Source: a bacterium (GTDB lineage: Bacteria; Patescibacteriota; Minisyncoccia; Phycocordibacterales; Zambryskibacteraceae). Taken from it: a stretch of 64,000 nucleotides of DNA. The notes beneath the pieces are model-generated. The model had not been told where the DNA came from, ran no database searches, and was given only the letters and a program-made list of their open reading frames with translations. Both the position numbers and the translations under genes were made by a program. Shown piece by piece: positions 33,710-51,620 of the stretch (position 1 is its first letter; each line of letters begins with the position of its first letter). Location: the NCBI GenBank assembly GCA_030650605.1, contig JAUSDP010000020.1, positions 13,486 through 77,485 on the forward strand. Direction: 5' to 3'.

Positions 33710-33715
33710 CTATTC

Positions 33716-33886: not shown

Positions 33887-33892
33887 TATTCC

Positions 33893-35172: not shown

Positions 35173-35383
35173 CACATCCTCTGTTTATTAATTTCGTATA
35201 TGTAATATTACACGGAAATTATAATAAAAGGAATTATGAAACGATACAAAATTAATTGGCGTACTAGCTACTCTACGAAATTCTATGGTGATTTTTTGTT
35301 TGGTTGCCGCTTCTCAAAAATTAATGCCTCACGGCCAATATAGCGAGATCGAGTTCCTACCTGCCGGCACCTTTAACTTCTTT

Positions 35384-35717: not shown

Positions 35718-35738
35718 TCTCATTATAACCTGATGATT

Positions 35739-36068: not shown

Positions 36069-36889
36069 TTATCAGACCTCATTAAATGTTCGATAATATT
36101 AATAATTTTTGAAGCAGTGTTATCTCGCCTAAAGACATCTCTACACAACACTCGAATTCCAGATTCATTTACATTTATATTAGTTGAATATAATTCGATC
36201 GCAGCAGGAACAATTGTCTTAAATTTAATCGTGTCAGCAATATCAAATACAAATGATCGTGGATCGCCAGAATGAATGAACCCAATCGCCGGTGAATATC
36301 CAAGTGCAAGAATCGCAGCTTCGACCAATCCATAAAGCGCAGCGTTTGCTGTACTTATTGCGCGATTTAACGGATCTGACAACGAAGAACGTTGATCTCT
36401 TCCTAGCCATTTAACATTGTATCTTGCAGAAATTTCACGATACAAATCATAAACTTTTGCACCTTCGATCCCACGCAGTTGATCAATACTTCTTCCAGCT
36501 GGAGGTTCAACATCAAACATCTCCCGATAAATATTTCTCGCCATCTCCAAACGTCGCGATGGATCTAAATGAATGGAAGCTTGATGTAACAATTTTTGCG
36601 CTACAGCCCCACCTGGATTGCCAGCCGAATAACATCTAACTCCTGCCTCACCAATCCAAAGTATTAAACATCCCGATTCGGCACATGCCTTGACTGCGGC
36701 ATGTGTAACAACAGTCCCAGGTTCAATACAGATAACGCTTGTTGCACCGACAGGAAAATGTATTTTGCTATCGCCTTGTCGTAAAACGACCGCGTGCCCA
36801 TCAAGTTCAAGCACACCATATTCTGCATAAATAAAAGTTACCCGATCCACGATAGGGATCGGGTAATCTATCAACGAACGTCCACTCAA
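36065..36889 (-). CDS. cas1: Cas1 integrase, I-E-like
   Basis: 274 aa; long collinear similarity to E. coli Cas1 (GEAGVRCYSAG ... LRGIEGAKVY ... GFIHSGDPRSFVFDIAD). Confidence 0.9.
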   Translation of the reverse strand: MSGRSLIDYPIPIVDRVTFIYAEYGVLELDGHAVVLRQGDSKIHFPVGATSVICIEPGTVVTHAAVKACAESGCLILWIGEAGVRCYSAGNPGGAVAQKLLHQASIHLDPSRRLEMARNIYREMFDVEPPAGRSIDQLRGIEGAKVYDLYREISARYNVKWLGRDQRSSLSDPLNRAISTANAALYGLVEAAILALGYSPAIGFIHSGDPRSFVFDIADTIKFKTIVPAAIELYSTNINVNESGIRVLCRDVFRRDNTASKIINIIEHLMRSDK

Positions 36890-37602
36890 GCGATTAATTC
36901 CTTGGACATTACCCGATCAGTTTTTCTCCAATACGGCGGCCGGATACACGCCTGAACAGTGGCATAGGAAAATCCTGCTTTACCTGGCTCATCCAAAGGC
37001 AATACACGTAAGCGCCAATCATCTTCACGGTCATGTGATGACACATCAATGCTTGCTACACGACCGTAACCATTGCGTCCGACTTTGCCAATGTATTTAA
37101 TATGCTGAGTGAGATAATACTCAATGGCGTCAATGTCTCCAACGCCATACGCCGTAATATCACGGACCCAACGGCTTGCAGTCAACCATTGATAACCACG
37201 TTGTTGACCGCTAGCGGTTTTAATCCCAAACGTTTCAGGATCAATACCTCGCACGTTCCCATTTTTCAGAAAGCCTGAAACCCACACACCATCGGGCGTA
37301 TCTTCTGTATACAAATCCTTGAAGTACATCTCCGGATCAGATTTACGAATTTGATTCGACAGCATGATGTCACTCGATGCGGCCACAATCAATTTTGACG
37401 TTTTCCACACCCAGTCCTTGCCATCGGTGCGTGCAAGAAAATCTGACATATGCTGATCGGTCTTGGCCCAGCAATCATCCTCGCCAGCACGCTCCATTTC
37501 CTGCACGCTTGCATAGGCCAGAAGAGCATCCAGATGAATCGGATATTCCGAATCCATAAAAAGCGGCGAAGCAAGAGTGATCTTAACTTTAAAAGGCTGC
37601 AT
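36886..37602 (-). CDS. csf3: Cas5-group RAMP, Csf3-like
   Basis: N-terminal ASPLFMD ... HLD RAMP motif and C-terminal Gly-rich loop GKVGRNGYGRV; position matches csf3 in type IV-A; 4-nt overlap with cas1. Confidence 0.55.
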   Translation of the reverse strand: MQPFKVKITLASPLFMDSEYPIHLDALLAYASVQEMERAGEDDCWAKTDQHMSDFLARTDGKDWVWKTSKLIVAASSDIMLSNQIRKSDPEMYFKDLYTEDTPDGVWVSGFLKNGNVRGIDPETFGIKTASGQQRGYQWLTASRWVRDITAYGVGDIDAIEYYLTQHIKYIGKVGRNGYGRVASIDVSSHDREDDWRLRVLPLDEPGKAGFSYATVQACIRPPYWRKTDRVMSKELIA

Positions 37603-37631
37603 AAAAATGCTCCTGATTGAGGTGTTGATTT

Positions 37632-38846
37632 CTATCGAGCTAATTTTTTAGCAGCAGCTTTGGCTTCTTTTTCAAGTGCCTTTGCCGCCTTTTCTTCAGC
37701 TGCTTTCAGCGCTTTTTCTTCGGCTTTGCGCTCCTTATCAACCGCTTTGGCCGCTTTTTCTTCGTCAGTGGCAATCACTGGTGGCTTCATGATGGCGTCC
37801 AGACGCTCTCCACTCAATTCAGACGCAGCAATTTTCCACGCATTCAAATAGACAGCAATTGATGGATCAGCTTTGATCAACGAGTTATTGTTAAAAATCG
37901 TATCGGTCACATCAACATTGTCACCAGTATTAATCGCGATCGCCACATCATTGAGGCGAATACGGCCAAGTCCATTACGAGTTTGTCCACCGATGGACGT
38001 TTTTGCCAGTCCATCAAGACTTAACAAAAATAGACCAATTTGTGCATCGGTAACATCGGTCAATTCAACAGTAAAATCAAAATCAACGCCTGGATCTACA
38101 AATTCAAATGCACTCCACGCTTTAGTGCTGTTGCGACTTCCTTTTTCTTCTGCGTCCTTCGCTAGCTGATCCTCAATGATCAACCGCTGACGTGCATTAA
38201 ATTGAACTTCAAAGTCCGTTACAACACCTTCCATCCGATCTACATCAAGAAGTGCACTAACGTCATCGCCGCGTCGAAATGCCGCCCCGCGCGAAATATT
38301 CATGCCCGATGTTGCTTTCCCTACTCCCCGTGGGTGACCTACAGAAAAGCCAGATGATCGCAGACTATCCATGACGGGCACTGCATCAAGAACACGCATA
38401 CGACGACGCAACATACGCGGACCACCACCAAAAAGTCCAACATAAGGATGTGACGATACCTCCTTATATTCAGCAAACGTCAGATCGCGAGAATCGGGCT
38501 TTCCTGTCACAGCGCCGCAAGTAATTGCAGAGTACGTTTGCAAAGTGATCTTTTGATTCTTCTCACGAAGAACATTGACAAGAATTTGAGCACCCTGACG
38601 ACGCAAACGACCTGCAATATTATTCGCGGCAATGACAGCGACACCATAATCGAGTCCATCGACAGATCCAGGGGCAAAACGACGACGCTGAATACCGGCA
38701 CAGGCGATGCCTCCTTTGGTTCCGTTTTTAACAAGGCCATAGCCGGTTGAATCGCTTACTTCGTAGCGGAAGGTTTCTGGTGATGCGATGTGCAATGGAG
38801 ACAAAGTAGTCAAGATTGCGTGGATGGTGACTGATTTTTTGGACAT
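37632..38846 (-). CDS. csf2: Cas7-group RAMP, Csf2-like backbone protein, with an unusual Lys/Ala/Glu-rich C-terminal tail
   Basis: N-terminal TTLSPLHIASPE (Cas7 signature); about 350-aa RAMP body; C-terminal EEKAAKAVDKERKAEEKALKAAEEKAAKALEKEAKAAAKKLAR. Confidence 0.55.
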   Translation of the reverse strand: MSKKSVTIHAILTTLSPLHIASPETFRYEVSDSTGYGLVKNGTKGGIACAGIQRRRFAPGSVDGLDYGVAVIAANNIAGRLRRQGAQILVNVLREKNQKITLQTYSAITCGAVTGKPDSRDLTFAEYKEVSSHPYVGLFGGGPRMLRRRMRVLDAVPVMDSLRSSGFSVGHPRGVGKATSGMNISRGAAFRRGDDVSALLDVDRMEGVVTDFEVQFNARQRLIIEDQLAKDAEEKGSRNSTKAWSAFEFVDPGVDFDFTVELTDVTDAQIGLFLLSLDGLAKTSIGGQTRNGLGRIRLNDVAIAINTGDNVDVTDTIFNNNSLIKADPSIAVYLNAWKIAASELSGERLDAIMKPPVIATDEEKAAKAVDKERKAEEKALKAAEEKAAKALEKEAKAAAKKLAR

Positions 38847-38902
38847 GATATTAAGCTTTCTAGTTGAGTTAAATGAACAGCTAATAAATTACAAATACGG
38901 GA

Positions 38903-39670
38903 TTAATCACTGGTTTCTGCAGGTGTGAAATCATCGATACCGGCACCTGGGGTCAATAAGAATCGTAGTCCCCATGTTTCGCCTAGCGTCAAATTTCTCA
39001 AAAATTCAATTTCATTCTTAAATTGTTTCAATAGATCAGCATGTATTTCCGCTTTCGCTGGATCTGAAGGCATGTTGAGACGAAGCGTTCCATGTCCGAT
39101 TTCTTTCAAATCGGCAGACAAACGAAGAAATGGATGGACCAATGTTTTCGCCGTTGCTTCAAATCCAAACGCTTTACCAACCTGCTGACTGACCTCGACG
39201 GCCTGCATCAAAATGGCATGTCTGATTTTTACATCCCGCAGTCCAACCCGTACATAAAACAATTCGGGAGAGAAATTCACGGGCGCTCGCCATGCCATAT
39301 GTTGATTATTTGCCGTGGCATACACCGCCACAAAGGGTTCTTGCGGTGGATTAGTCAATGCGGAAGAAATTTCGAGCCACTTGCGAAATGGAATATAGGC
39401 AGACTTGGTAAATACGCCATATCCTGTTTCTTTCAATGCAGTTGCACTCATCAAAGTGGCGCAATATCCACACATCAAATCACTACCACGTGCAGCGAGA
39501 GACAAGTCATCCATGAAAGCTGCAGATACTGAGAACGGGCTAGACAGATCACCAACGGCAATATGCAATCCGCAAAAAGCACAGCAACCTTCTTTTTTGG
39601 AAGCAACCCCTTCAGGCGATTCACCTCGGGACTGCGTCACAATCACAGAGGAAGTTATAGTTAAGCTCAT
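38903..39670 (-). CDS. csf1: Csf1-like zinc-finger small subunit (Cas8-like)
   Basis: CCAFCG ... CGYC zinc finger; ATG overlaps the cas6 stop (ATGA) with GGAGGA RBS; position matches csf1. Confidence 0.5.
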   Translation of the reverse strand: MSLTITSSVIVTQSRGESPEGVASKKEGCCAFCGLHIAVGDLSSPFSVSAAFMDDLSLAARGSDLMCGYCATLMSATALKETGYGVFTKSAYIPFRKWLEISSALTNPPQEPFVAVYATANNQHMAWRAPVNFSPELFYVRVGLRDVKIRHAILMQAVEVSQQVGKAFGFEATAKTLVHPFLRLSADLKEIGHGTLRLNMPSDPAKAEIHADLLKQFKNEIEFLRNLTLGETWGLRFLLTPGAGIDDFTPAETSD

Positions 39671-40416
39671 CGTTCTATCCTCCGACGAATCAATCCATAT
39701 CCACGCGAACGCAGTTTTCCTGCCATCCAAGGACCATTTAGTGAAATGTTGGTACAAAAGGTAATATTCTTAAAAGCCGCTGCAGGAATCCCGGGCTTAA
39801 TCGGAATTGGTACTGACTCTCCTTCTAAAATATCCAAAATAAGACTGTCGTCAGATGGGATACCATGCTCTAGAAGATGTGGCGTACCAAGGTCTTCATC
39901 GAGCCACCGAGCCATAGAGATCAGACCGTTTAAAATTTCTTTTTTAATTTCAGGCGCTCGCTCTTGAGCCGTCACACCAAAAAAGTGAGAAAGCTTCGCC
40001 GGTTTTTTTGACACGATCAATTTACGGATGGAGTAAAGGATCGGTTCGCTCATTTGAAGCTCACAATCACCGTGTTTAAATTCCATACGGTATGGCCCAC
40101 CGAGATGTTTGGACAGTGCTGTCACGATCGACGCAGTATGTTCTGCCAATAAGTCCGTGCCAGATTTGCCAATACCATAGATGCGAATAAATCCGTTTCC
40201 ACCATCAAAAATAATGCTTGGAGGTAGACCGAAACCTTCTCCCTTGCGATCATCTCCATAACGACCCTGGAGTGTTTTACCATCTGGGCCGCGAGCGAAA
40301 ATAGCAGGATCAATTGATCGACCATCACAAGCCTTGGCCACTAACGATCGGGCATCTTCAGGATAGATCTGCTGCCCTTTTAGTACTTCAGGAAATAACA
40401 AAAGTTCTTTATACAT
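39667..40416 (-). CDS. cas6: Cas6 endoribonuclease (Cas6e/Csf5-like)
   Basis: C-terminal Gly-rich loop AGKLRSRGYGLI resembles Cas6e GxxKSMGCGLL; first gene of the operon. Confidence 0.6.
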   Translation of the reverse strand: MYKELLLFPEVLKGQQIYPEDARSLVAKACDGRSIDPAIFARGPDGKTLQGRYGDDRKGEGFGLPPSIIFDGGNGFIRIYGIGKSGTDLLAEHTASIVTALSKHLGGPYRMEFKHGDCELQMSEPILYSIRKLIVSKKPAKLSHFFGVTAQERAPEIKKEILNGLISMARWLDEDLGTPHLLEHGIPSDDSLILDILEGESVPIPIKPGIPAAAFKNITFCTNISLNGPWMAGKLRSRGYGLIRRRIER

Positions 40417-40574
40417 GTTGTGTGTCCAATTATTTGTTTAGTTGGTGTAACGAATATTACTCTACAAAAAAAATATAGCAAGTAGGAATTTAATTTTAAT
40501 AAGTAAATACACTTGATGAAATTTTCTTTATTTGGGCTATAATTTGCCCATATTAACCAATGCCGAGGATTCTC
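40417..40574. promoter_or_regulatory. divergent promoter region between the cas operon (minus) and dinG (plus)
   Basis: AT-rich 158 bp; TATAAT at about 40538 on the plus strand; TTGCTA-16-TAATAT on the minus strand. Confidence 0.35.
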
Positions 40575-42872
40575 ATGAACGCAGCCGCACAGCGAAATGT
40601 ACAAGTGCCTTTGGTAGATCCCGTCAAAAACCACGTCGGGGCCTCGATCTCAGATGCTTATCGCAGTCTTATTCGTTTTGCCATTAATGCAAAACTACCT
40701 CCGAAAGCAGTAGAACTTGAAGGTATTCCTCGTGTAAGCGTGTTTTTCCCGCCTGCGTTATTCGCTCAAATCTCAGAAATCGCTGAACTTCATCAACTGT
40801 CATATCAATCTACAGTAGCTGGGCTGGCGATAGCCGGTGCAGAAAAAATAGCCGAAAAAAATGAATTGGTAGAACAATTCAAAAGTGATGTTCCATTTAG
40901 GGCGCGTCCGGAACAAGTTCTTTTCTACCAATCAATTATGGCCGGGCTGTCATCATCTAAAATCGTCGTTGCAGAAGCCTCTACTGGCGCAGGCAAGGGA
41001 CGTGCATTGATGGCTGCCGCTATCGCATCAGCTCAAAACGGAAAACTCCCTGTCATCGTCGCAGCACCAACAATCGTCGTCGTTAATCAACTATGGGCTG
41101 AACTGCAGGTACTTCGCACGCAAGACAATATGGGACCGCTTATTTCAGCAACGATCCTACCTGGCTCTGCAGATCTGGCAGATGACGTCAAACTTTTGGA
41201 GTGGGCAAACGATCCTGATTTTAATCAACTCGATCCTGCGGTGACAGAATGGATCCTTAAGGGTGGACCTCACAAAGCTAACGATGCGATGGCGCAAGTA
41301 GCCAAAGAACAAGGAATTACCCTTTGCTGGATGATGTCCGACTTGCAAGAGATTGCAACTAACTTCCCTTCTGATGACTATGTTTTAACGACGAATAGCG
41401 AAGACAAGACAACGCTCTCGCAATCGCGAGAATTGTTAGCCAAAATTCGTGAAGCCGCCAATCGGAAAGACGTCGATAAAAATATGAACACGGTTCACGC
41501 CGGTGCGGACATTATCCTTTGCACCCACGCCATGTTAGCGCTTGGACAAATGACAAAATGGGTTGTGCTCCCGCAACCAAAAGTGCTGATCGTCGACGAA
41601 GCCCATCTTCTAGAAGAAACAATTTCAAGAATGAATAGTCAGCAAATTTCACTATTTTCGATTAGTTATCGCCTAAGCCGTTTTTGCCGCGCAACAGGGG
41701 CAGGAAAAGGAACCGTAGCCAGGGACACTCAAGCAAAGGCCAAACAGTTCCTGCGTACTTGTATGGAAATGTCAAACAATGATATTCGTCAAAAACTCAA
41801 TGACGATCCGTCTAAATATGACACTGTTCAAAAGGGATTGGCCAGTCTCGCCAATATGGTTAAAAACAAGGTTTTTAAGTCGGATCCAACCATTCAAAAA
41901 GATATGTATTCTCTTTTGTCTGGCACAGCCAATATGATGGAGAAGGATCGGTCCAAAAACAGTACGCATCTTCAATTCTCTCCTGATAGGCGGTACCCAT
42001 TGATCAGTGTCGGAGCCGATACGATCGGAATGCAGGCTGGAGCCATTTGGAAGACCGTAGACGGTGGTGCCGTACTTGCGTCGGCTACCATGTACATCAC
42101 CGATGAATATGGCAACCAGAAGTGCGATTACGTGGTTCGAAATCTTTCAATCCCGCTCTCCAGGCTGGACACCCCTCTTCCTGTCGTGAGCAGCTATATT
42201 TACACCCTTCCAACACTATACTTACCAAAAAAAGAAAACTATGCGGCACTGTCTCGCCCAGCATTGAAAGAGAGGGAGGACCCTCAAGTGGAGAAAGAAT
42301 GGTTGAAAAATATTGCTGATGTTGTCGCCAAAAATGCTAAAACATGCAAAGGCGGAACGCTGGTACTCACAAATTCCTATGACCAGATTGACGAGATCTC
42401 CACGCAACTGAAAGAAAAATACCCTGAGATCGCGGCCAGAGTCATTGTCCAGGTACGCAAGGCAAAATTTTCAGCCGCAGTGAACGCATTCACTCTGGCG
42501 CATAGCAATGGCGTAAAGCCGATTTTGATTGGGCTTGGCCCGGCCTGGACAGGGCTCAATTTGTCGCAAGATGTATCCGATCCTAAAAAAGATACTCTGC
42601 TGATGGACCTTGTCATCGCCTGTAGCCCGATCGGACTGAACCAAACTGCGACAATGCTTCGCCGTATTGAGCAAACCAATACAAGTGCGATAGCGAAAGA
42701 AGGACTACTTATTTTAAAACAAGGGCTTGGGCGGTTGATTCGTCGCGATGGTGTTGAAGGACGTCGAATTTGGATCTTGGATGGCAGAATCTGGTCAGAT
42801 AATTGGCTGAAGCAATTTACGGGGCCGGCTAAACGTTTGTTGGGTAAATATAAAAATGTGGATTATTTTTAG
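40575..42872 (+). CDS. csf4: DinG-family (Rad3/XPD-like) SF2 helicase, CasDinG/Csf4-like
   Basis: Walker A AEASTGAGKGRA; DEAH box VDEAHLLEE; about 766 aa; GAGGA RBS; divergent from the cas operon. Confidence 0.8.
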   Translation: MNAAAQRNVQVPLVDPVKNHVGASISDAYRSLIRFAINAKLPPKAVELEGIPRVSVFFPPALFAQISEIAELHQLSYQSTVAGLAIAGAEKIAEKNELVEQFKSDVPFRARPEQVLFYQSIMAGLSSSKIVVAEASTGAGKGRALMAAAIASAQNGKLPVIVAAPTIVVVNQLWAELQVLRTQDNMGPLISATILPGSADLADDVKLLEWANDPDFNQLDPAVTEWILKGGPHKANDAMAQVAKEQGITLCWMMSDLQEIATNFPSDDYVLTTNSEDKTTLSQSRELLAKIREAANRKDVDKNMNTVHAGADIILCTHAMLALGQMTKWVVLPQPKVLIVDEAHLLEETISRMNSQQISLFSISYRLSRFCRATGAGKGTVARDTQAKAKQFLRTCMEMSNNDIRQKLNDDPSKYDTVQKGLASLANMVKNKVFKSDPTIQKDMYSLLSGTANMMEKDRSKNSTHLQFSPDRRYPLISVGADTIGMQAGAIWKTVDGGAVLASATMYITDEYGNQKCDYVVRNLSIPLSRLDTPLPVVSSYIYTLPTLYLPKKENYAALSRPALKEREDPQVEKEWLKNIADVVAKNAKTCKGGTLVLTNSYDQIDEISTQLKEKYPEIAARVIVQVRKAKFSAAVNAFTLAHSNGVKPILIGLGPAWTGLNLSQDVSDPKKDTLLMDLVIACSPIGLNQTATMLRRIEQTNTSAIAKEGLLILKQGLGRLIRRDGVEGRRIWILDGRIWSDNWLKQFTGPAKRLLGKYKNVDYF

Positions 42873-43130
42873 AAAGCTCATTTACCCTCATTATTTTTTT
42901 AAAATTCAACCTTCGCTGAACCAGTTCCAATTAAGGCGGTCATGCAAACGTCTCTAGTTGCCACTGCTTAATGAGCAGTTGCAATTCCAGCGAAATTTTA
43001 AGCAATCCAGGCCGGCCCACTTCCTAGTATTGCTGCAATCCTGATCATTTCTTAAAAAAACTAGCGTTGGTGTGGAATATATATATAATTGATTCATTAG
43101 TGAGGCATAAACAAATTTAATGCATCACAA

Positions 43131-43463
43131 ATGAATCAGAAAGCTTCCATGAAAAACTCCTTCATACCCTCATTCCAGTGTGAATCTGCCCTTGAAGACA
43201 TGGGTAGTAAGTTGCGCATTGCGCGACTTCGCCGTAACGAGTCGGTGCAAATCGCCGCGCAACGTCTTGGCATCTCTCGCGCCAAGTATCAACGGCTTGA
43301 AAATGGCGACTCGAACGTATCCGCTGGCGCATTGATTGAAGCGCTCATCCTGTACGGCTTTGAATCGCAGGTATTTGCCCTGGCGGACCCAGATTTAGAT
43401 GAAACTGGAAAAAGGTTAGAAAAACAATTGCTCCCAAAACGAGGACGTACTCATGCAAAGTAA
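43131..43463 (+). CDS. hipB: HipB-like XRE HTH antitoxin (start uncertain)
   Basis: LRIARLRRNESVQIAAQRLGISRAKYQRLENG is an XRE HTH; overlaps the downstream hipA by 11 nt. Confidence 0.7.
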   Translation: MNQKASMKNSFIPSFQCESALEDMGSKLRIARLRRNESVQIAAQRLGISRAKYQRLENGDSNVSAGALIEALILYGFESQVFALADPDLDETGKRLEKQLLPKRGRTHAK

Positions 43464-44775
43464 ATCGAAATTAATAGAAACACCACTCTATGTTTACAAG
43501 ACGGGCGAGGATCTCCCTATATTAATTGGAGAACTTGGCTTTATTTCCGACACGCAGAATGAGTTCCTTGCACAATTTAATTACGATGCGTCGTACATAA
43601 TTCGACCTGATGCATTCGCAATCGATCCGTTGAATATGCCGTTGGCTGCACCAACCAAAGAATACAGCACCACAAATAGGTATCACGTTCTTGGAGCATT
43701 GTTTGACGCAGCTCCAGATGCTTGGGGCCGTAAGGTAATCAGTGCGAAAGTTGGCGTTTCCCAGGCATCAGAAAAAACCATTCTGTTAAAGGGAAACGGA
43801 ATGGGTGTCGGTGAGCTTTTCTTTTCAGCATCCCTGCTTGAAAGTAACCCCACTTTTCTTAAAATTCCAACTATTGACCAAATTGAGCAACTGGCCAGCC
43901 CGATCACGCAAGTAGATGAAGGGGCTAAATTTAATCCAGCTTGGGAAAATCTATTGATCAGTTCCTGGGACATTGGCGGGGCCAGGCCGAAGGCAATTGT
44001 TTTGGACGAATCGGGCGAGCACTGGATTGCAAAATTTCCTCGCAAGGGTGAAACATATGATCGCCAACGCGTCGAATGGGCGAACCTTGAAATGGCGGCC
44101 GACATTGGCATGGATGTACCGGAACGCAGGCTTATCGAGACGCAATATGGCGCCGTATTGCTGGTCAAACGATTTGATCGCAGCTTGGACAAGAAAAGCC
44201 ACTATCTGAGCGCAGCATCAGTCATCAGTCCGTCGCCGACAATTGATAAACGTCAAATCGATGCTCCAATCGGACAGGCAACGTTTTCCTATGCACGTAT
44301 CGCCGACACGATACAACGAATCTCAAATTATCCTAGTCGGGATCTGCAGGAACTTTATGCAAGAATGGTTTTCAATGTTCTTACCCACAATACGGACGAC
44401 CATCTAAAAAATACAGGCTTTCTAAGAGTAAAAGATGCACGGGATCCATATGCATATCGACTGTCGCCATTGTTCGATGTGGTGACCCAGGAGGGATCTC
44501 TAAAGCACATGCTACAGATCGGGAAAGCTGGGCGCGAGAGCACTATAGAAAATGCACTCTCCAACGTGCGTCGCATGAGAATAAAAGAGGACGCGGCGCA
44601 AAAAATCGTGCAAATAGCGCGATCTGTGTTTGATCGCCGAGCAGAATATTACGACAGAGCCGGATTGCAATCAGATGAAGTTGAGGCATTGGAAAGGTGT
44701 TTCACATGGCTGAGATCTGCTCGGGTTGCGGATGTTGAAATTGAAGACGAAGAGAGTGGATCGGCACCGCGATAG
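43453..44775 (+). CDS. hipA: HipA-family serine/threonine kinase toxin
   Basis: DIGGARPKAIV and VLTHNTDDHLKNTGF motifs (HipA P-loop-like and catalytic motifs). Confidence 0.85.
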   Translation: MQSKSKLIETPLYVYKTGEDLPILIGELGFISDTQNEFLAQFNYDASYIIRPDAFAIDPLNMPLAAPTKEYSTTNRYHVLGALFDAAPDAWGRKVISAKVGVSQASEKTILLKGNGMGVGELFFSASLLESNPTFLKIPTIDQIEQLASPITQVDEGAKFNPAWENLLISSWDIGGARPKAIVLDESGEHWIAKFPRKGETYDRQRVEWANLEMAADIGMDVPERRLIETQYGAVLLVKRFDRSLDKKSHYLSAASVISPSPTIDKRQIDAPIGQATFSYARIADTIQRISNYPSRDLQELYARMVFNVLTHNTDDHLKNTGFLRVKDARDPYAYRLSPLFDVVTQEGSLKHMLQIGKAGRESTIENALSNVRRMRIKEDAAQKIVQIARSVFDRRAEYYDRAGLQSDEVEALERCFTWLRSARVADVEIEDEESGSAPR

Positions 44776-44789
44776 TTTATCGTGCGTAT

Positions 44790-44880
44790 TTTTCCTCTCA
44801 AAACAACATAAATTACAAATTGAGAGGAAAAATACTGCTTTACTCCATCTAAATATTACATCTCAAATTTGAGAAATAAT
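44790..44880. promoter_or_regulatory. palindromic operator-like elements upstream of the second hipBA pair
   Basis: CCTCTCAA-N17-TTGAGAGG inverted repeat and the perfect 14-bp palindrome TCTCAAATTTGAGA; further TCTCAAA/AGAAA half-sites up to 44990. Confidence 0.4.
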
Positions 44881-45030
44881 GTTTGCATTGTGGGCTCATT
44901 CTATCTATATTTATCAAATACGAGAAACGATGTAACGAAAAAGTCAAAAATAATCATTATTTCTCAAAAATTAGAAATAATTGTGAACATCGCTCATAAC
45001 TTATTAAAGATTTATCAGATTTAGACAATT

Positions 45031-45336
45031 ATGGCTGGCAAATTCCCTAAAATTACCAATCCTCCATCACCTCAAATTTCCTCAGCGCAGGAATTAGGGC
45101 TATGGATACGCGCACGCCGCATTGCGGCCGGCATTCGTATTGATGATGCCGCCGCACTTTCTAACGTGTCGGTGCAATTGTTGTCGGATTTGGAAAATGG
45201 CAATCGCTCGGTCGGTATCGATAAAGTGTTTGCGGTAATCAATTGCTTAGGGCTGGACCTGATGGTAAAGCCACGCGGTGAAGATCTCGACGACAGAGAT
45301 GCAGAAACTGAGGCTGACAATGCTCCCAAAAACTAA
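45031..45336 (+). CDS. hipB: HipB-like XRE HTH antitoxin (second copy)
   Basis: LWIRARRIAAGIRIDDAAALSNVSVQLLSDLENG. Confidence 0.7.
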   Translation: MAGKFPKITNPPSPQISSAQELGLWIRARRIAAGIRIDDAAALSNVSVQLLSDLENGNRSVGIDKVFAVINCLGLDLMVKPRGEDLDDRDAETEADNAPKN

Positions 45337-46696
45337 CGAACTGATTATCTGGATCGAAAATATTCGGGTAGGTGCGCTTGAGGTCAATGAGCTGGGGCAA
45401 TTCCGACTGAATTATGAGTCCGCCTGGGTCGCATCCCCCACTGGCTATCCAATTTCACCAACACTTCCTCTTGCAGGCAGCGAGGATTCTGCCGAAATAC
45501 ACTCCGCAAAAGTACGTTTCTTCTTTTCGAATCTATTGCCAGAGGGAAAAAGCCTTGACGAAGCCGTCCTGGCGAATGGACTATCGAAGTCAAATGTCTT
45601 CGGCCTGCTTCACGCCTTGGGCAAAGAGAGTGCCGGCGCATTAATGCTCTTGCCTCCAAGTCAGCACCCAGAAACGCTTACTAGCGATAGTGATTTGCGC
45701 GAAATCACCAATGCTGAACTTTCCGAGCGAATTCGGGCGATGCCCAACGTCCCCTTTTCCGTTTGGGATGGCAAAGTGCGTATGTCCATCGCCGGATACC
45801 AAGCCAAACTGGCCGTCCACAAGACTCAAGATGGACGCCTGTGGTTAGCGAGCGGGAAGAGCGCTTCCACGCACATTTTAAAGCCTCAGGCGAGCGCATT
45901 GAATGAATGCCAAGTCGCCAATGAGTATTTCTGCATGCGCTTAGCCGCTATGTCAGGCATCGAGTCGGCCGAGGTTGATATTCTGCGCGTGCCAGAACCT
46001 ATCTTAGTGATCAAACGATTTGATCGCCAGCTGATCAGTGGCGTTGCACGCCGCTTGCATATCATTGATGCCTGCCAGGCGCTCAACAAGTCACCAGAAC
46101 AAAAATATGAACGCAATTTCGGAGCCGGCGAACACGTAAAACACATCCGGGATGGCGTCTCGATTAAAAACTTGTTCTCGATCACCGACTTAGCAACCAA
46201 TAAGGCCGATATGACCTTGCGCCAGTTGCGCTGGCTTATTTTTCAGCACTTGATCGGCAACTCGGATGCACACGGAAAAAACATGTCGTTTTACGTGGCG
46301 CGTGATGGGCTGAAAATGGCTCCAGCCTACGATCAACTCAGTGTAACTATCTACCCGACAATCAATCATGAATTTGCCATGGCAATTGGTGATGAGTTCC
46401 TGGAAGAGGCAATTCGGGCTTACCAGTGGGCCGACTTCGCCATTCAAGTCGGACTCAACCCTGGCTTGGTCGCACGCACGATTAAACATGTCGCTAACAA
46501 AGCAAATCGTGCGCTGCCAACTCTCTTGGCAGATCCGATATTGACTGATGTTGAGAAGAACTTTCTCAACAGGTTGGCGAATCAAATCCAGGTGCGAGTT
46601 GAAAAGTTTTTGGAAATTGCAAAAATTCTTCCTGGCGTTGCTCGCGATATCGCTGATGAAGACGTTGCTGTAACTCTTACTGATATTTGCAAATAA
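45320..46696 (+). CDS. hipA: HipA-family kinase toxin (second, divergent paralogue)
   Basis: SIAGYQAKLAV and LIGNSDAHGKNMSF motifs; GAGG RBS before MLPKTNE; overlaps hipB by 17 nt. Confidence 0.85.
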   Translation: MLPKTNELIIWIENIRVGALEVNELGQFRLNYESAWVASPTGYPISPTLPLAGSEDSAEIHSAKVRFFFSNLLPEGKSLDEAVLANGLSKSNVFGLLHALGKESAGALMLLPPSQHPETLTSDSDLREITNAELSERIRAMPNVPFSVWDGKVRMSIAGYQAKLAVHKTQDGRLWLASGKSASTHILKPQASALNECQVANEYFCMRLAAMSGIESAEVDILRVPEPILVIKRFDRQLISGVARRLHIIDACQALNKSPEQKYERNFGAGEHVKHIRDGVSIKNLFSITDLATNKADMTLRQLRWLIFQHLIGNSDAHGKNMSFYVARDGLKMAPAYDQLSVTIYPTINHEFAMAIGDEFLEEAIRAYQWADFAIQVGLNPGLVARTIKHVANKANRALPTLLADPILTDVEKNFLNRLANQIQVRVEKFLEIAKILPGVARDIADEDVAVTLTDICK

Positions 46697-46704
46697 AAAA
46701 ATGA

Positions 46705-46730
46705 ATTCAAAATTTTGAATCCTTCAATCG
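46705..46730 (-). terminator. AT-rich palindrome (TTCAAAATTTTGAA core), candidate minus-strand terminator
   Basis: Perfect 14-bp palindrome flanked by an A-run on plus and a T-run on minus; follows the 92-aa minus-strand gene. Confidence 0.3.
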
Positions 46731-46754
46731 CAAACGTTTCTGAACATTGAAATA

Positions 46755-47033
46755 TCAACGTGGCAATTGAATCGGAATGCCATATCCCATCTTAAATCGA
46801 TCTCGAATCGTTGGTTCACGTTTCAGTATAGATCGCCATTCAGCATCATCCTCAATCAGCCAGAAATACCGTTGAGCGGAAACGAAGTCACACCCAGTTT
46901 GCTCATGAAAATGAATCGCTGCGTCTTCACATCCCCACCGCGTGTCGTGGTACAACGGATCAAAATATTTCCGTTCAAGATAGCGTCTCAAATTACGCAA
47001 GAGTAGTCTTACTGACTTATGATTTCTCATCAC
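46755..47033 (-). CDS. hypothetical protein
   Basis: 92-aa ORF downstream of the GHKL gene. Confidence 0.35.
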   Translation of the reverse strand: MMRNHKSVRLLLRNLRRYLERKYFDPLYHDTRWGCEDAAIHFHEQTGCDFVSAQRYFWLIEDDAEWRSILKREPTIRDRFKMGYGIPIQLPR

Positions 47034-47087
47034 TCAAATACCTTCTAATAACCGTCACTCACGAAAATTATCAAAGCTGCGATTCAC

Positions 47088-48803
47088 CTATTGACGTGCA
47101 TTCTTTTCTTGCACTCTTGTGGGCAATTTTAGAGCAATCTTCGCTATTTGTTTCGCGTGGTATCCAACTTCTTTTGACGGCACAATGGCAATCTTTGCCA
47201 ATCCTGATAAGTAATGCCGCATCATCCCATTAACGATGAATCCAAATTGGTATTTCAGAATACAGGAGTGGAAGCGTGCATAGAAATTTCGGTCGTGCGG
47301 ATGGCTCTCAATACTACTTTCATCATGGCAGTATTCGTGTGCCATTAATGCCACCAATACGTGCGGGCCGCTCTCACGAATGCCCCTCAATTCCTTTCGG
47401 TTAATCGCAATATAAGAATGTCCATCAGTCCAAGCGTTCATTTGATTCGATACGCCTATGATTATTCGCCGCTTCTTGCGCTCAAAAAGAACTGACATGT
47501 CCCTGTTGTATCGGTTAAGTCCAACAAGAACAAGTTTTTCTTCGGCAGTTAATTCGCTTTCCTTCACAAGCGTATTTAGACCATCCATCTCATGAACGAG
47601 GTCCGAAAATAACACGAAAGTTGGACTAGCGTTTGTGCCGCTTAATGCCCTGAACAAAGACGTAATGACATGTTCAAAATTATCTTCATTACTTTCAAGC
47701 CCACATGTGCGCATGAATTCCGGCATGATGACATTGGCACGACCCAGTTGTTGCACCCGCTCTGCCACCATCGAATGGCGCCCGTTATAGAGCGTATAGA
47801 TATTATTGATAAACAGATCTTTCGGACTACGATTCTCTCCAAATATGTTTGGAATAAACCGGACTGTTTCAATATTTTTACATATGTTATGGTTGAATCT
47901 CTCCCTACTGCCTAAAATCATTTTCATCAACAGATAACACTCGTTGCTATCCAATTTTTTTGCACTGAGAATTCGATTGTTAAATTGTGTTTGTAGCGTT
48001 GCTAGAATGCATTTCCAAACGTGACACTCGCGTCTAAGAATCTCGTTGCGTGCCATATTGACAGTCAGAGGATGCTTAGTAACGATCGTTCCTGTAAGGC
48101 CAAACGTGGATCCCGGATAATAAGTAACGAAGGCACCTCGGTTATATACTTTCAAATTACATTGATCCGAATCAAATTTGTACCAGGCATTCTCATCCTC
48201 CACTGACCACTCAATTTCTAAAGGCGGAGTGTTAATCTGCATCCCATTGACGAAAACTGGTACAGACACGAATTTGACCATCGCTTTGATTGAATTGCCA
48301 TAGTCGCATTCCTCATCAAATCCAGAGAAATCGTGCTGATCATAAAACTCACCTTTGATCACGCACCCAGGCGCTGCGTCCTTGAACGTTGTCAACTCAT
48401 AGCCAAGATCACCACGCCGATGAATATCAACGTGCATGCCGAAAAACCCACTACGCCAATCCGTTTTGGCGAACGACATAATTTGTCCGCGCCCAATGCG
48501 AAATTTGCCGAAATAGGCATCATCTTTTTTGTGCGGCGTCCCAAATATTTCGAAGAAAGTCTCAATTTCTTCTCTCGAAGAAAACCCCTTCCCATTGTCC
48601 GCGATTGAAAATCCAACTTCGTTAATAAGCACGTCTATTCGAGTTGCCCCGGCATCTACTGAATTCATAATCAATTCGCACAAGGCTTTACTGCTACTTC
48701 CAGCCTGTTCTTTGATCAACGTCAGAATAATGGCTGGGTGAACGCCAAATTGTCGCGCTTCAGAAGTATTGTTGACGGTGGCAAGACTGCTTGATTTAGA
48801 CAT
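47088..48803 (-). CDS. GHKL-superfamily (Hsp90/MutL/histidine-kinase-like) ATPase
   Basis: N-box ELIMNSVDAGAT and G1 box ADNGKGF; ATG at 48803 overlaps the upstream stop by 8 nt (ATGTCTAA). Confidence 0.7.
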   Translation of the reverse strand: MSKSSSLATVNNTSEARQFGVHPAIILTLIKEQAGSSSKALCELIMNSVDAGATRIDVLINEVGFSIADNGKGFSSREEIETFFEIFGTPHKKDDAYFGKFRIGRGQIMSFAKTDWRSGFFGMHVDIHRRGDLGYELTTFKDAAPGCVIKGEFYDQHDFSGFDEECDYGNSIKAMVKFVSVPVFVNGMQINTPPLEIEWSVEDENAWYKFDSDQCNLKVYNRGAFVTYYPGSTFGLTGTIVTKHPLTVNMARNEILRRECHVWKCILATLQTQFNNRILSAKKLDSNECYLLMKMILGSRERFNHNICKNIETVRFIPNIFGENRSPKDLFINNIYTLYNGRHSMVAERVQQLGRANVIMPEFMRTCGLESNEDNFEHVITSLFRALSGTNASPTFVLFSDLVHEMDGLNTLVKESELTAEEKLVLVGLNRYNRDMSVLFERKKRRIIIGVSNQMNAWTDGHSYIAINRKELRGIRESGPHVLVALMAHEYCHDESSIESHPHDRNFYARFHSCILKYQFGFIVNGMMRHYLSGLAKIAIVPSKEVGYHAKQIAKIALKLPTRVQEKNARQ

Positions 48804-49500
48804 AGGCGTAAAGTTTAAAAAAGAAGGGGATGTTCTTCGTTTCGCATGCGCTACGTAATGCACTGACCCAACTCATTTTCATTGGCCGCGCATGGGGGCC
48901 AGATTCACCTCCAACCACGATCCAATCCAATGTTTCACCGAATTGACCATGTGTCTCAGGCAGAGATACGGGACCAAGTAAGGGCTCCATACTCAACCAA
49001 CGCGTTGCAGCTGGCGTACCCAATAACTTTGCTATATCGCGGTCTGCTTCATCTTGGTTAACCACAGAGATACCCAACCAAACATTCGAATAGCCACATC
49101 CCCAATCTGCCGGAAGCATGTCTGCCACATTACCGATGCGCTTGGTGAGAATCAACCAATCCAGATTTGGTGTTGATCTGACGAGTGCCCAAAGATCATC
49201 GCGCCAGGTTGTATCAACTCGATTATCAAATACGTCGGAGAGTGAGGCGCAAAAAACACGACGCTTACGACCATGCATCGCAAAAAAATCGGGATGCCCG
49301 GAATTCCAACGAATTGGTAACTTCCAGTTTGCGGCGCTGGTACGTTGACGAGTTTCCTTCGGGCCCCAGACTATCTTCATAGTGCGTGATGGAGTGCTTA
49401 CTTCTGCATAGCAGTGATCGCATCCAGGCGAAATCTTGGAGCATCCAATCCACGGATTGAAAGTGCTATCTGTCCAAGAAATATTTGTTTCAGCGGCCAC
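48796..49500 (-). CDS. phage Gp37/Gp68-family protein (DUF5131, three-Cys motif)
   Basis: ISWTDSTFNPWIGCSKISPGCDHCYAE matches the family signature WTxxTWNPxxGCxxxSxGCxxCYA. Confidence 0.75.
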   Translation of the reverse strand: MAAETNISWTDSTFNPWIGCSKISPGCDHCYAEVSTPSRTMKIVWGPKETRQRTSAANWKLPIRWNSGHPDFFAMHGRKRRVFCASLSDVFDNRVDTTWRDDLWALVRSTPNLDWLILTKRIGNVADMLPADWGCGYSNVWLGISVVNQDEADRDIAKLLGTPAATRWLSMEPLLGPVSLPETHGQFGETLDWIVVGGESGPHARPMKMSWVSALRSACETKNIPFFFKLYAYV

Positions 49501-49553
49501 TGTTTTTCCTAATGACGTAGGGGGGTCGGAGTAATCAAATTATTGATTAAAGC

Positions 49554-49988
49554 TTATGCAGCTTTCAGGGTGACTTTTAATTCGATGCCATTCGCCGCTG
49601 GTAATTTGATGACGTCACCTGGTTTAGCGTGGATGTGATGCCTACCTTTTGAAAGCACCGTTCCTTGTTCCAGTATTTGATATTCGATGACGGCATCAAC
49701 GTCAACAGTGCGTGCGCTTTCGTCTTGAACGTATATGACCTTACCGGACATTCCAGATTCAATTTTTACCTGCTTATATTGAACTTCACCAAGATTCGAA
49801 TTGACTTCGTTGGCAATACTTTGTGATGCTATCGCCCCAAAGAACGCTTCACTCCCTGGCCGGGTGGTCACTTCGAATTGTTTTATTGGTTCCTTGCCTT
49901 TGTTGGCGGTAATTTGGAATTGCACACCATCTTGTGCACTTGCTGCGACTGCAAAAAAACAAAAAAACACAGAAATTAACTTTTTCAT
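49554..49988 (-). CDS. periplasmic/secreted protein
   Basis: Signal peptide MKKLISVFFCFFAVAASAQ. Confidence 0.45.
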   Translation of the reverse strand: MKKLISVFFCFFAVAASAQDGVQFQITANKGKEPIKQFEVTTRPGSEAFFGAIASQSIANEVNSNLGEVQYKQVKIESGMSGKVIYVQDESARTVDVDAVIEYQILEQGTVLSKGRHHIHAKPGDVIKLPAANGIELKVTLKAA

Positions 49989-50099
49989 CTTAGCTCCGTT
50001 TTACCCCAGGGCTCGCGAGGTGCCGATTGAGCGATTGCTCGGAATTTTTCACAGCGCCTTTTCATAATGTGTCCGTAGCGTCCCTATTCATACTGAGCT

Positions 50100-51620
50100 C
50101 TATTGCTTCATACGAACAACATTACGTTTCTCAATCGACTCACCTTCATCCGTACTTTCTGGCTTACTACCTTCGGATACGTGCCATCCAGGATCAATTG
50201 TTTCCGTCGTATTTGACTTGAATATATCAAGGCCAGCTTCAGCTTCTATTTGAATAGAGTTGTATCGATAGTCTGGATAGAACTGAGACAAGTAGCGACG
50301 ACAAATGGAGTCATATACTTTCGCTTCGTCGCCAGTTAGCGCGCTCTTCGGTGGGACATTGCCAGTGGGAATAATGGCGTGATGCGCAGAACCTTGATCA
50401 ATTAATTTTTGTGCATTCCAGCATCCTGAGACCTGAGACAAATCAGCTTTTGCTGTCAAGCCAGCTAATATTGGTGCTATATTCTTCAAGATATCAGTTG
50501 AATCGGCGTGTTGTGACTCAGGCACATGCCGCGCATCGGTTCCGATGTAACTAATCGCCTTATGTTTTTCATAGAGTCCTTGCGCGGCCTTGGCTACTTG
50601 TTTCGCGGTCATACCGTGTTTCTTACCCACGGCTGAGCCCAGCGCACTCCCAGAAAAAGGCAAAGGTGGCGGCTGTTTCTTCTCTTCGATAGTGGCTCGC
50701 GTGATAGTCGTAGCCACGTGGGCAGCTAGAATATTTTTTAGAATAGCCTCGGCAACTTGCTTGTCGATAATTCGTCCATGCGCATCGATACCGAGCATGC
50801 TTCCACCTTCTTTACGCGACTGCCAGGCCAATTCGTGCCCACTCTCCAACGTGATAACGGGCACGTAATAGTCTTGCTTCACGAATTTTTGAATATCAAG
50901 CGTTCGTTTGACGACGAGTCGTGTCACTGGCGTGCGCACACGCCCCACAGGAACAACCGTCTTGGCCGATATTGAATAAGACCTAGAACCTGCCATGCCT
51001 ATCATCCAATCAGCCTTAGCTCGGCACTCGCCAGCAAAACGGCCTTGAACAAATTCAGACTCTCCATTCGAGCGACGCGGGGCATCTATAACGCGACGCA
51101 AGGATTTATCGTCCAGACTGGTAATCAGTACACGCTCAACAGGCTTTTGCGAGCCGTCAGGATTTATTCCGGCCCACTCAATGAGTTCGTCGGCCAAATA
51201 TTGCCCTTCGCGGTCAATATCTCCCGCGTTGACGATAATTTTGGCGTCTTTTAAGAGCTTCGTCACAATCGCCAATTGCGGCATCGGCACAGGATCCCCG
51301 CTACGACTCAGCTTAATGCGTCCTTTTTCATCACGCTCAGACTTTGGACGTTTAATCCATTTCGAGTCTTCCACCATTAAATAAGGTATCGCTTCTTTCG
51401 CGAAAAATTTTCCCTTGAGTGCTTCTGGTAAGTAGGCATCAGGTTCAGCTTGCTCAACCAAGTGCCCTATCGCATGCGTGACAATATCGCCGTTCTTCAA
51501 CAGGTAATAGCCTGGGAACCGTTTATCAACACCGAAATATTCTGCGAGGGCTTTTGCCACAGACGGTTTTTCTGTGAGCCAAGTTCTTGTCACCATTAGA
51601 TTAGGCTTCTCCGCAGACAA
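50100..51620 (-). CDS. N-terminal 506-aa portion of a type IA DNA topoisomerase (Topo III-like): Toprim plus catalytic-Tyr domains, lacking the C-terminal third
   Basis: LMVTRTWLTEKPSVAKALAEYFG (Toprim start), NAGDIDREGQ, AISYIGTDARHV (active-site Tyr region), HHAIIPTGN; ends where the 33056-33709 fragment begins. Confidence 0.7.
   Translation of the reverse strand: MSAEKPNLMVTRTWLTEKPSVAKALAEYFGVDKRFPGYYLLKNGDIVTHAIGHLVEQAEPDAYLPEALKGKFFAKEAIPYLMVEDSKWIKRPKSERDEKGRIKLSRSGDPVPMPQLAIVTKLLKDAKIIVNAGDIDREGQYLADELIEWAGINPDGSQKPVERVLITSLDDKSLRRVIDAPRRSNGESEFVQGRFAGECRAKADWMIGMAGSRSYSISAKTVVPVGRVRTPVTRLVVKRTLDIQKFVKQDYYVPVITLESGHELAWQSRKEGGSMLGIDAHGRIIDKQVAEAILKNILAAHVATTITRATIEEKKQPPPLPFSGSALGSAVGKKHGMTAKQVAKAAQGLYEKHKAISYIGTDARHVPESQHADSTDILKNIAPILAGLTAKADLSQVSGCWNAQKLIDQGSAHHAIIPTGNVPPKSALTGDEAKVYDSICRRYLSQFYPDYRYNSIQIEAEAGLDIFKSNTTETIDPGWHVSEGSKPESTDEGESIEKRNVVRMKQ

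Follow-up and report, generated by a model that had tools for sequence, protein, structure and literature searches.

The HipBA system of Shewanella oneidensis MR-1 (SO0705/SO0706; PDB 4PU3, 4PU4, 4PU5 and 4PU7; Wen et al., 2014, PMC4150777) is encoded on the chromosome, and its promoter carries four 16-bp palindromic operators, GTGTA-N6-TACAC, placed 34 bp apart, i.e. with a 50-bp period (PMC4150777). In Escherichia coli K-12 HipBA (PDB 3DNT, 3DNV and 2WIU) the operators are 10, 21 and 10 bp apart (PMC4150777). Reported aminoacyl-tRNA synthetase targets of the classical HipA kinases are GltX, TrpS and LysS (PMC8262856), and Caulobacter crescentus, with its hipBA1, hipBA2 and hipBA3 operons (targets GltX, LysS and TrpS; PMC8262856, Table 1), provides a precedent for several diverged HipA kinases on one replicon. 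Here we describe two adjacent hipBA toxin–antitoxin (TA) modules, designated hipBA1 and hipBA2, found in 64,000 nt of contig JAUSDP010000020.1 (hereafter the window), which is part of a 164,825-bp metagenome-assembled contig with conjugation-type genes. Most likely these are two independent, intact, self-regulated type II HipBA operons, stacked by modular accretion in a variable cargo slot of a conjugative element.

The four genes are on the forward strand, in the order hipB1, hipA1, hipB2, hipA2. The hipB1 gene (43131–43463, 110 aa from ATG 43131) encodes an Xre-type helix-turn-helix (HTH) antitoxin-repressor (Pfam HTH_31, 1.2e-8); an alternative in-frame ATG at 43149 gives a protein of 104 aa, which is the length annotated in three relatives (L002, L003 and L092), and is the likelier start. 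By sequence, the closest PDB entry to HipB1 is 9u9g_A (2.4e-6), which bears the name 'XRE family transcriptional regulator, HipB'. The gene is followed by hipA1 (43453–44775, 440 aa; GenBank MDO8728581.1), which encodes a HipA-family Ser/Thr kinase toxin of a divergent clade. The second pair consists of hipB2 (45031–45336, 101 aa; Xre-type antitoxin-repressor, Pfam HTH_3, 1.5e-8) and hipA2 (45320–46696, 458 aa; GenBank MDO8728583.1), encoding a classical HipA kinase toxin of the S. oneidensis type; the hipA2 open reading frame (ORF) can be extended to a GTG at 45278 (472 aa), and the GenBank entry is the 458-aa form that starts at an ATG. Antitoxin and toxin ORFs overlap by 11 nt in hipBA1 and by 17 nt in hipBA2, and a 255-bp spacer (44776–45030) separates hipA1 from hipB2. 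Thus, the description in an earlier note on this DNA, two complete head-to-tail modules with overlapping ORFs, kinases of 440 and 458 aa that carry the motifs GGARPKAIV/HNTDDHLKN and SIAGYQAKLAV/GNSDAHGKN respectively, and a 255-bp spacer, agrees in every detail with the ORF list and with Pfam. That note would have been undermined by a pseudogene; no frameshift or internal stop is present in hipB1, hipA1, hipB2 or hipA2 in the ORF list of the window, and both modules are intact, with full-length kinases and all catalytic residues present. No Rfam family matched the region 42800–47100 at E ≤ 1, and no near-identical DNA was found in the plasmid collection.

Membership of the HipBA family was judged by the HipA kinase family definition of Gerdes et al. 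(2021; PMC8262856). Both kinases match HipA_C (HipA1, 2e-43; HipA2, 1.2e-47), and the Lys of the Gly-rich loop (K180 in HipA1), the catalytic Asp and Asn and the Mg-binding Asp are invariant. The N-terminal subdomain 1 is fused to the kinase in both, as judged from Pfam for HipA2 (Couple_hipA, 3.7e-19) and from the predicted fold and hhalign for HipA1, in which the Couple_hipA match is marginal (2e-4). Each kinase gene is preceded by an HTH (HipB) gene within the operon, and relatives are arranged alike. Gene order, the logic of an HTH antitoxin that is also an autorepressor, and the kinase fold are those of E. coli K-12 HipBA, and the equivalents of E. coli D309, N314 and D332 are conserved in HipA1 and HipA2. 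The kinase core is also shared with HipBST (E. coli O127, Legionella pneumophila); unlike HipBST, both kinases are of 440–458 aa and possess the N-subdomain, and both operons are bicistronic with no hipS, so that neither fits the HipBST definition.

The two kinases differ strongly from each other. HipA1 and HipA2 are 22% identical over 342 aligned residues, and HipB1 and HipB2 are 27% identical. HipA2 is close to S. oneidensis HipA, with which it aligned over residues 5–433 (4pu3_A, E = 7.4e-76; E. coli HipA, 2e-27). Like S. oneidensis HipA, it keeps the serine of the phosphorylated loop (RMSIAGYQAK versus LSVAGVQPK), the GN(S/A)DAHGKN motif and the YD motif. At the autophosphorylated position (S150 in E. 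coli, S147 in S. oneidensis, Ser156 in HipA2) a serine was found in all 122 sequences of the HipA2 clade, and D316, N321 and D338 are invariant in the same set. By its E-values, HipA2 is consistent with membership of clade I, the 'classical' group of E. coli, S. oneidensis and Caulobacter. HipB2 is weakly similar to S. oneidensis HipB, its best PDB match (4pu3_D, E = 1.4e-4), and matched NCBIfam TIGR03070 (couple_hipB) at 1.8e-12, under the cut-off of that model. Differences from S. oneidensis are the 17-nt overlap of hipB2 and hipA2 (a 3-bp gap in S. oneidensis) and the location of hipBA2 on a conjugative element rather than on the chromosome.

HipA1 was described by E-values, hhalign and fold comparison. 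Its best match among solved structures by phmmer was L. pneumophila HipT (E = 5e-4); no solved HipA scored better, and no clade I structure, E. coli HipA included, was detected at E < 0.01. An AlphaFold2 model of HipA1 (33 relatives in the alignment) had a pLDDT (predicted local distance difference test) of 88 and a pTM (predicted template-modelling score) of 0.88. The best fold matches of this model were full-length E. coli and S. oneidensis HipA (template-modelling scores 0.65–0.73, 16–17% identity), and its alignment with the full-length E. coli protein spans about 455 columns; the predicted model therefore has the fold of a full-length HipA. Comparison of the HipA1 clade with the E. coli/HipA2 clade by hhalign gave a probability of 99% and E = 3e-18, covering HipA1 residues 23–421. 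D315, N320, D342, K180 and K194 of HipA1 are invariant among 121 relatives. The residue aligned by hhalign with E. coli Ser150 is Asp173, and an Asp is present at this position in 117 of the 121 clade members; a serine, Ser171, is invariant two residues upstream. The autophosphorylated serine is considered a regulatory feature and not a membership criterion, and some Hip families that are devoid of it may not be regulated by autophosphorylation (PMC8262856). No GGARPK-type sequence was found in the part of Table S1 of Gerdes et al. (PMC8262856) that was searched. The HipA1 clade, which has thousands of database matches, is large, mostly betaproteobacterial and also plasmid-borne, and it has no solved structure and no characterised member. 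In conclusion, the earlier description of the two HipA proteins as clearly diverged is borne out, and they belong to different subfamilies, only HipA2 being close to S. oneidensis HipA. Compared with the Caulobacter kinases, which are all of clade I (PMC8262856), the two kinases of the window are adjacent and far more divergent.

The promoter region of hipBA2 resembles that of S. oneidensis hipBA. The earlier note had singled out in the spacer a perfect palindrome, TCTCAAATTTGAGA, as a candidate HipB operator. This palindrome, 14 bp in length, occupies positions 44861–44874. It is not significant by itself, as 64 of 1000 shuffled spacers (6.4%) contained a perfect palindrome of 14 bp; its significance comes from its repetition in a series of sites and from its conservation across relatives. 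A repeat search detected a 20-nt unit that is present three times, with copies spaced by 51 and 50 bp, and four sites of the type TTTCTC-N6-GAGAAA can be aligned upstream of hipB2, at spacings of 51, 50 and 51 bp. The first (O1, 44859–44876, CATCTCAAATTTGAGAAA) contains the 14-bp palindrome and matches 10 of the 12 specified bases; it ends 5 bp upstream of a −35-like hexamer. A putative sigma-70-like promoter (44882–44911, forward strand; TTTGCA, 18-nt spacer, TATATT), which scored 9/12 in the promoter scan as a match to consensus only, lies between O1 and O2, and its two hexamers are kept in L001, L004 and L009. The second site (O2, 44910–44927, TTTATCAAATACGAGAAA, 11/12) overlaps the last bases of the −10 hexamer as well as the point at which transcription is expected to begin. 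The third (O3, 44960–44977, TTTCTCAAAAATTAGAAA, 11/12) lies within a longer palindrome, ATTATTTCT-N8-AGAAATAAT. The fourth (O4, 45011–45028, TTTATCAGATTTAGACAA, 7/12) is degenerate and lies just before the hipB2 ATG; in S. oneidensis the fourth operator is inside hipB.

Several observations support this assignment. Allowing at most one mismatch, TTTCTC-N6-GAGAAA is found only twice in the window, at O2 and O3. All four sites are conserved in the alignment with L001, L004 and L009, in which O4 matches 10–11 of the 12 bases. DNA homology with the independent hipBA2-type modules L004–L009 (78–80% identity) begins at 44845–44862, i.e. at O1. The degenerate forms of the operator motifs are not enriched window-wide (11 versus 6.5, 36 versus 31 and 55 versus 47 expected), therefore the case for operators relies on strict matches, local clustering and cross-locus conservation. 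We infer that the four sites are HipB2 operators. TCTCAAATTTGAGA thus becomes a credible operator candidate, as one of four periodic and conserved sites in an arrangement similar to that of S. oneidensis (four palindromes, each centred on N6, repeated every 50 bp), with a half-site sequence different from the GTGTA-N6-TACAC of that species. The promoters of hipBA1 and hipBA2 both differ in operator spacing from that of E. coli.

Candidate operators were also found upstream of hipB1, where the earlier note had seen none. A long imperfect palindrome in this region resolves into two 18-bp sites of the type TGnnTCA-N4-TGAnnCA, 31 bp apart: O1 (43090–43107, TGATTCATTAGTGAGGCA) and O2 (43121–43138, TGCATCACAAATGAATCA). 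The second overlaps the first ATG of hipB1 (43131) and is just upstream of the ATG at 43149. A perfect TATAAT (43084–43089, forward strand) abuts O1 and is a tentative −10 element, read from the sequence and uncalled by the consensus promoter scan. The TGnnTCA-N4-TGAnnCA motif has two matches in the window, both in front of hipB1, where 0.14 were expected. Such sites are kept upstream of the hipB1-type genes of L001, L002 and L003, and the promoters of L002 and L003 are otherwise dissimilar. In a zone-based count over 61 HipA1-type loci, 18 sites were found in the 500-bp upstream zone versus 7 in about 940 kb elsewhere, that is 0.61 versus 0.007 per kb, or an approximately 80-fold enrichment. 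Several of the sites in relatives are perfect palindromes (for example TGCCTCATTAATGAGGCA). The two palindromes in 43090–43138 are therefore predicted to be the hipBA1 operators.

The second element proposed as an operator in the spacer was a repeat described as CCTCTCAA-N17-TTGAGAGG. The repeat exists; its spacing is 18 nt, not 17, and its arms are in reality 16 nt long, forming a perfect inverted repeat on the forward strand, GTATTTTTCCTCTCAA-N18-TTGAGAGGAAAAATAC (44786–44801 and 44820–44835), which starts 10 nt past the hipA1 stop codon. No 16-nt arm was obtained in 1000 shuffles of the spacer. As RNA, the inverted repeat folds with an energy of −27.7 kcal/mol (z = −6.7). It was found only in the window and in one related element, L001, inside a junction segment of about 50 bp: the hipBA1 block shared with another relative, L091, ends at 44793, and the hipBA2 block shared with L004–L009 starts at 44845–44862. 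Lying outside both shared blocks, the inverted repeat is not part of either module, and the 18 nt between its half-sites also set it apart from the four conserved HipB2-type sites. As an intrinsic terminator it was not called by the terminator scan, and no U-tract follows it. For these reasons, i.e. absence from the shared block of either module, 18-nt spacing and a strong hairpin, CCTCTCAA-N18-TTGAGAGG was not retained as a HipB operator. It is probably a 3' hairpin, a terminator or insulator, or a junction relic, rather than a typical operator, although its arms contain the HipB2 half-site TCTCAA, to which HipB2 might bind weakly. A smaller terminator-like hairpin (44768–44784) overlaps the hipA1 stop codon.

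The inverted repeat raises the question of a single cross-regulated circuit, in which HipB1 and HipB2 would recognise related sites and the inverted repeat, with its TCTCAA/TTGAGA half-sites, would couple the two operons. In addition to the half-site in its arms, the retention of the inverted repeat in L001, the sole other tandem-bearing element, argues for such a circuit, as does the TCA-N4-TGA centre that is common to the two operator consensuses (43090–43138 and 44859–44977). Nevertheless, the flanking bases that would confer specificity differ (TGCC/GGCA versus TTTC/GAAA), as do the HTH proteins, each module stands alone elsewhere without the inverted repeat, and an 18-nt spacing does not fit a single dimer site. 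Cross-regulation is consequently regarded as very unlikely, and the shared centre may be inherited from a common ancestral mode of HipB recognition instead of indicating cross-talk. Two self-regulated operons remain the preferred reading.

Both modules look functional. The ratio of non-synonymous to synonymous substitutions (dN/dS) was estimated pairwise by the Nei–Gojobori method against relatives (L001, L091 and L092 in the case of hipB1). It was 0.03–0.06 for hipB1 (dS 0.6–1.3), 0.04–0.05 for hipA1 (dS 0.7–1.7), 0.09–0.13 for hipB2 (dS 0.14–1.0) and 0.06–0.10 for hipA2 (dS 1.0–1.6): all four genes are under purifying selection. These values bear on the alternative that only one module is a working TA system, the other being in decay or kept for its antitoxin, as an anti-addiction device against a related incoming toxin. 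In favour of this alternative, hipA2 of L001 is cut after about 95 codons next to an intact hipB2, and the window has a degenerate O4 in hipBA2. However, neither kinase of the window is truncated or lacks a catalytic residue, and the toxin genes themselves have dN/dS values of 0.04–0.10, which makes a single working module improbable.

The history of the two modules can be followed in two sister elements, L001 (Logan SRR32573211) and L091 (JGI 3300060282), which share with the window a backbone that includes a TraW-like gene, an LPD1 gene, a C-terminal fragment of topoisomerase III and ardC, at 81–87% nucleotide identity. In both of them ardC directly adjoins hipBA1 and no CRISPR-Cas locus is present, positions 35271–43028 of the window (7.8 kb) being replaced by 57–80 bp. 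Thus, hipBA1 is next to ardC in three of the three sister elements, and its promoter and operators are inside the conserved block, so that hipBA1 keeps its own promoter irrespective of the cas genes upstream. The slot downstream of hipBA1 is variable: it holds an intact hipBA2 in the window, a PhdYeFM/DUF6036 pair in L091 and, in L001, hipB2 followed by a hipA2 stub of ~95 N-terminal codons that runs up against a truncated IS605 tnpB. The hipA2 remnant of L001 (in the region 11828–12840) consists of the Couple_hipA/HipS-like N-subdomain only, and hipB2 and its operators are intact there; the tnpB gene, of the IS605 family (OrfB_IS605, 1e-21), is on the opposite strand and truncated at its C-terminus, and the contig ends inside it. 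A dS of 0.14 for hipB2, versus 0.6 for hipB1, suggests that the hipBA2 segment was shared more recently between the window and L001.

Elsewhere each module is found singly, at 62–86% protein identity. Modules of the hipBA1 type are present in L002 (another conjugative element), L003 (chromosome-like), L091, L092 (beside AbiEii) and on Achromobacter and Bordetella chromosomes; modules of the hipBA2 type are present in L004–L009, beside ApeA/HEPN, NB-ARC and integrase genes. Tandem hipA genes are not a recurrent architecture, since a further hipA was found within 8 kb in only 2 of 80 HipA1-type genome loci. These two, the sole multi-hipA clusters among the 80 loci, come from metagenome-assembled genomes of Desulfuromonadales (L072, 3782–11929, and L074, 1128–5976), and each has three HipA-like kinase genes within about 8 kb. 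Given the low identity of the two modules and their occurrence as single modules elsewhere, the tandem is best explained by accretion of two independently mobile cassettes and not by duplication; the kinases had been called 'duplicated', a term that 22% (kinases) and 27% (HTH proteins) identity does not support.

The modules had further been proposed to have a role linked to the CRISPR locus and dinG. The physical adjacency is real: csf4/dinG ends at 42872, on the same strand as hipB1 and 258 bp upstream of it, and belongs to a complete type IV-A locus composed of csf5, csf1, csf2 and csf3 (reverse strand), csf4/dinG (forward strand) and a six-repeat array; the csf4/dinG and csf5 neighbours were confirmed by NCBIfam. 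A functional tie, in which the TA pairs would guard the CRISPR locus against loss or cooperate with it in inter-plasmid conflict, could also draw on theory and experiments on competition between plasmids, in which TA activity and CRISPR carried on plasmids are reported to interact (PMC12945316). Yet L001 and L091 carry ardC-hipBA1 without CRISPR-Cas, the hipBA1 promoter and operators belong to the conserved block and not to the CRISPR segment, and relatives of either module are not beside CRISPR elsewhere. The adjacency appears incidental, and we consider a tie to CRISPR or dinG extremely unlikely. We conclude that hipBA1 is a stable anchor beside ardC and that the CRISPR block was acquired, or lost, separately in a lineage-specific manner.

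The type IV-A locus has adaptation genes of its own between csf3 and the array, at 35739–36068 and 36065–36889 (both on the reverse strand). The cas1 gene is of the I-E type (TIGR03638, 5e-84, above the cut-off) and cas2 matches Cas2CT1978 (2.6e-17). Type IV loci are described as almost exclusively devoid of adaptation genes and presumed to rely on Cas1-Cas2 borrowed in trans (PMC7038947); the present type IV-A locus, which encodes both proteins itself, is therefore a rare configuration. The array (35384–35717) comprises six 28-nt repeats (TTCTCACCCCTGCACGCAGGGGGATAAC) at 60–62-bp spacing, of which the two most distal to cas are degenerate (79% identity).

The role of the two operons can be envisaged as follows. 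By analogy with E. coli and S. oneidensis, each HipB dimer would occupy the palindromes in the promoter of its own operon and keep its own HipA inactive. HipB1 would use the two TGnnTCA-N4-TGAnnCA sites abutting TATAAT, and HipB2 the four TTTCTC-N6-GAGAAA sites that bracket the −35 and −10 hexamers with a 50-bp period. When HipB is no longer replenished, because the element has been lost or host transcription has been shut off, HipA would be freed, and free HipA would, again by analogy, phosphorylate an aminoacyl-tRNA synthetase, which would stop translation and arrest the cell. As operators, antitoxins and kinases differ strongly, orthogonality of the two modules is most likely, perhaps with a different synthetase as the target of each. 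The main benefit is most likely that the element and its cargo are stabilised by post-segregational arrest; abortive infection may be a second role. Stabilisation is the most economical role because hipBA1 is kept beside ardC in all three elements and because a hipBA operon of a large Klebsiella michiganensis plasmid is reported to act as a plasmid-stabilisation system (PMC11487325), the role proposed here.

Alternatively, the modules might act mainly in abortive infection: a phage that shuts off host transcription would deplete HipB, and the freed kinases would arrest translation before completion of the phage cycle. The neighbourhood is of the defence type, with the type IV-A CRISPR-Cas locus upstream and, downstream, a pair of genes with matches to candidate defence models. 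The first of the pair (47088–48863, reverse strand) encodes a 591-aa HATPase_c_3 protein, a MutL/sacsin-like ATPase; it is overlapped by a DUF5131 gene (48796–49500, reverse strand), the product of which matches the PADLOC candidate defence models PDC-M41B (4.8e-49) and PDC-M30B (2.8e-48), and the two are likely a further defence-candidate pair right after hipBA2. The ApeA/HEPN, NB-ARC and integrase neighbours of hipBA2-type modules and the AbiEii neighbour of one hipBA1-type module point in the same direction. Moreover, an anti-phage function has been validated for HipAD/DS-6, a system with a HipA-family kinase whose catalytic residue is required for phage defence (PMC13092281), which indicates that the fold can serve abortive infection. 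On the other hand, the partner of the HipAD kinase is a DUF3037/DUF1829 protein unrelated to HipB (PMC13092281), whereas the partners here are of the Xre HTH type, so that neither module belongs to HipAD/DS-6. The PADLOC model PDC-M03A gave weak and partial matches to both kinases (1.4e-5 to 2.6e-7), which cover the kinase core and not the full length. The fixed position of hipBA1 beside ardC resembles that of a maintenance gene, and HipA1-type genes are common on Achromobacter and Bordetella chromosomes. A mainly abortive role is possible on these grounds but seems rather unlikely, and stabilisation is preferred as the primary function of the two operons.

Some observations weigh against two intact, self-regulated operons of the type described above. 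The promoter scan revealed no convincing −35 element for hipBA1. The N-terminal subdomain of HipA1 scored 22.3 bits, just below the Pfam sequence cut-off of 22.5 bits. The Asp at the canonical autophosphorylation position of HipA1 means that its regulation may differ from that of the model systems. In hipBA2, the fourth operator has only 7 of the 12 specified bases, and the lack of window-wide enrichment of the degenerate motifs was mentioned above. The truncation of hipA2 in L001 implies that the element can do without the second toxin. Finally, the weak and partial PADLOC matches provide no positive evidence for the defence role suggested as a second function.

The cargo that contains the two modules is inserted in a split gene. 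The topoisomerase III gene is divided into two ORFs on the reverse strand, 50100–51620 and 33056–33709, separated by 16.4 kb of cargo (33710–50099) comprising ardC, the type IV-A CRISPR-Cas locus, both hipBA modules and the HATPase/DUF5131 pair. The N-terminal ORF (506 aa) has Toprim and Topoisom_bac domains (profile positions 9–299), and the C-terminal ORF (217 aa) covers profile positions 299–410 and carries a Zn ribbon; the joined halves align as a single piece with intact plasmid topoisomerase III genes over 99–100% of their length. The C-terminal fragment is a separate ORF in L001 and L091 as well, with a dN/dS of 0.02 at dS 1.3–1.6, from which it follows that the split is old and that the fragment apparently still functions. 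In L002 a 517-aa N-terminal topoisomerase ORF is followed by unrelated cargo. A 10-nt word, AAAGTACGGA, which may be due to chance, is present near both split junctions. The split topoisomerase gene could be a hotspot for cargo integration. Other neighbours are a 92-aa ORF between hipA2 and the HATPase pair (46755–47033, reverse strand), for which no family match was found, a 1773-aa protein (55253–60574, reverse strand) with an N6 DNA methylase and a helicase of the Strawberry-notch type (AAA_34, Helicase_C_4), and an LPD1-domain protein of 776 aa (30381–32711, reverse strand). The methylase-helicase and LPD1 proteins are, with ArdC and RdgC, typical leading-region or anti-restriction polyvalent proteins of conjugative elements.

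Plasmids carry HipBA modules in abundance (at E ≤ 1e-20, the two kinases find matches in 316 and 1702 plasmid records), both kinases are already labelled HipA-family in GenBank, and stacked TA cassettes are commonplace in cargo hotspots; the region is in these respects ordinary mobile-element cargo, and the split topoisomerase III and the type IV-A locus with Cas1-Cas2 are arguably more unusual than the hipBA tandem. The comparison of sister elements, which suggests that a type IV-A block was placed between ardC and a TA anchor already there, is a caution against inferring function from adjacency. The present analysis provides operator predictions for two HipB types and extends the 50-bp, four-operator architecture of S. 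oneidensis to a divergent relative. The HipA1 clade, with its Asp in place of the autophosphorylated Ser, would be a sensible subject for structural and biochemical work on how HipA is switched off. As a speculation that we consider unlikely, the conserved Asp may remove the self-inactivation switch or shift it to Ser171, which would give this clade a different regulation, maybe a different target, and toxins that are harder to reverse; stacked with an orthogonal classical HipA, such a kinase would form a two-lock device for addiction or abortive infection. If this were true, neither one antitoxin mimic nor one target mutation would suffice to defeat the device.

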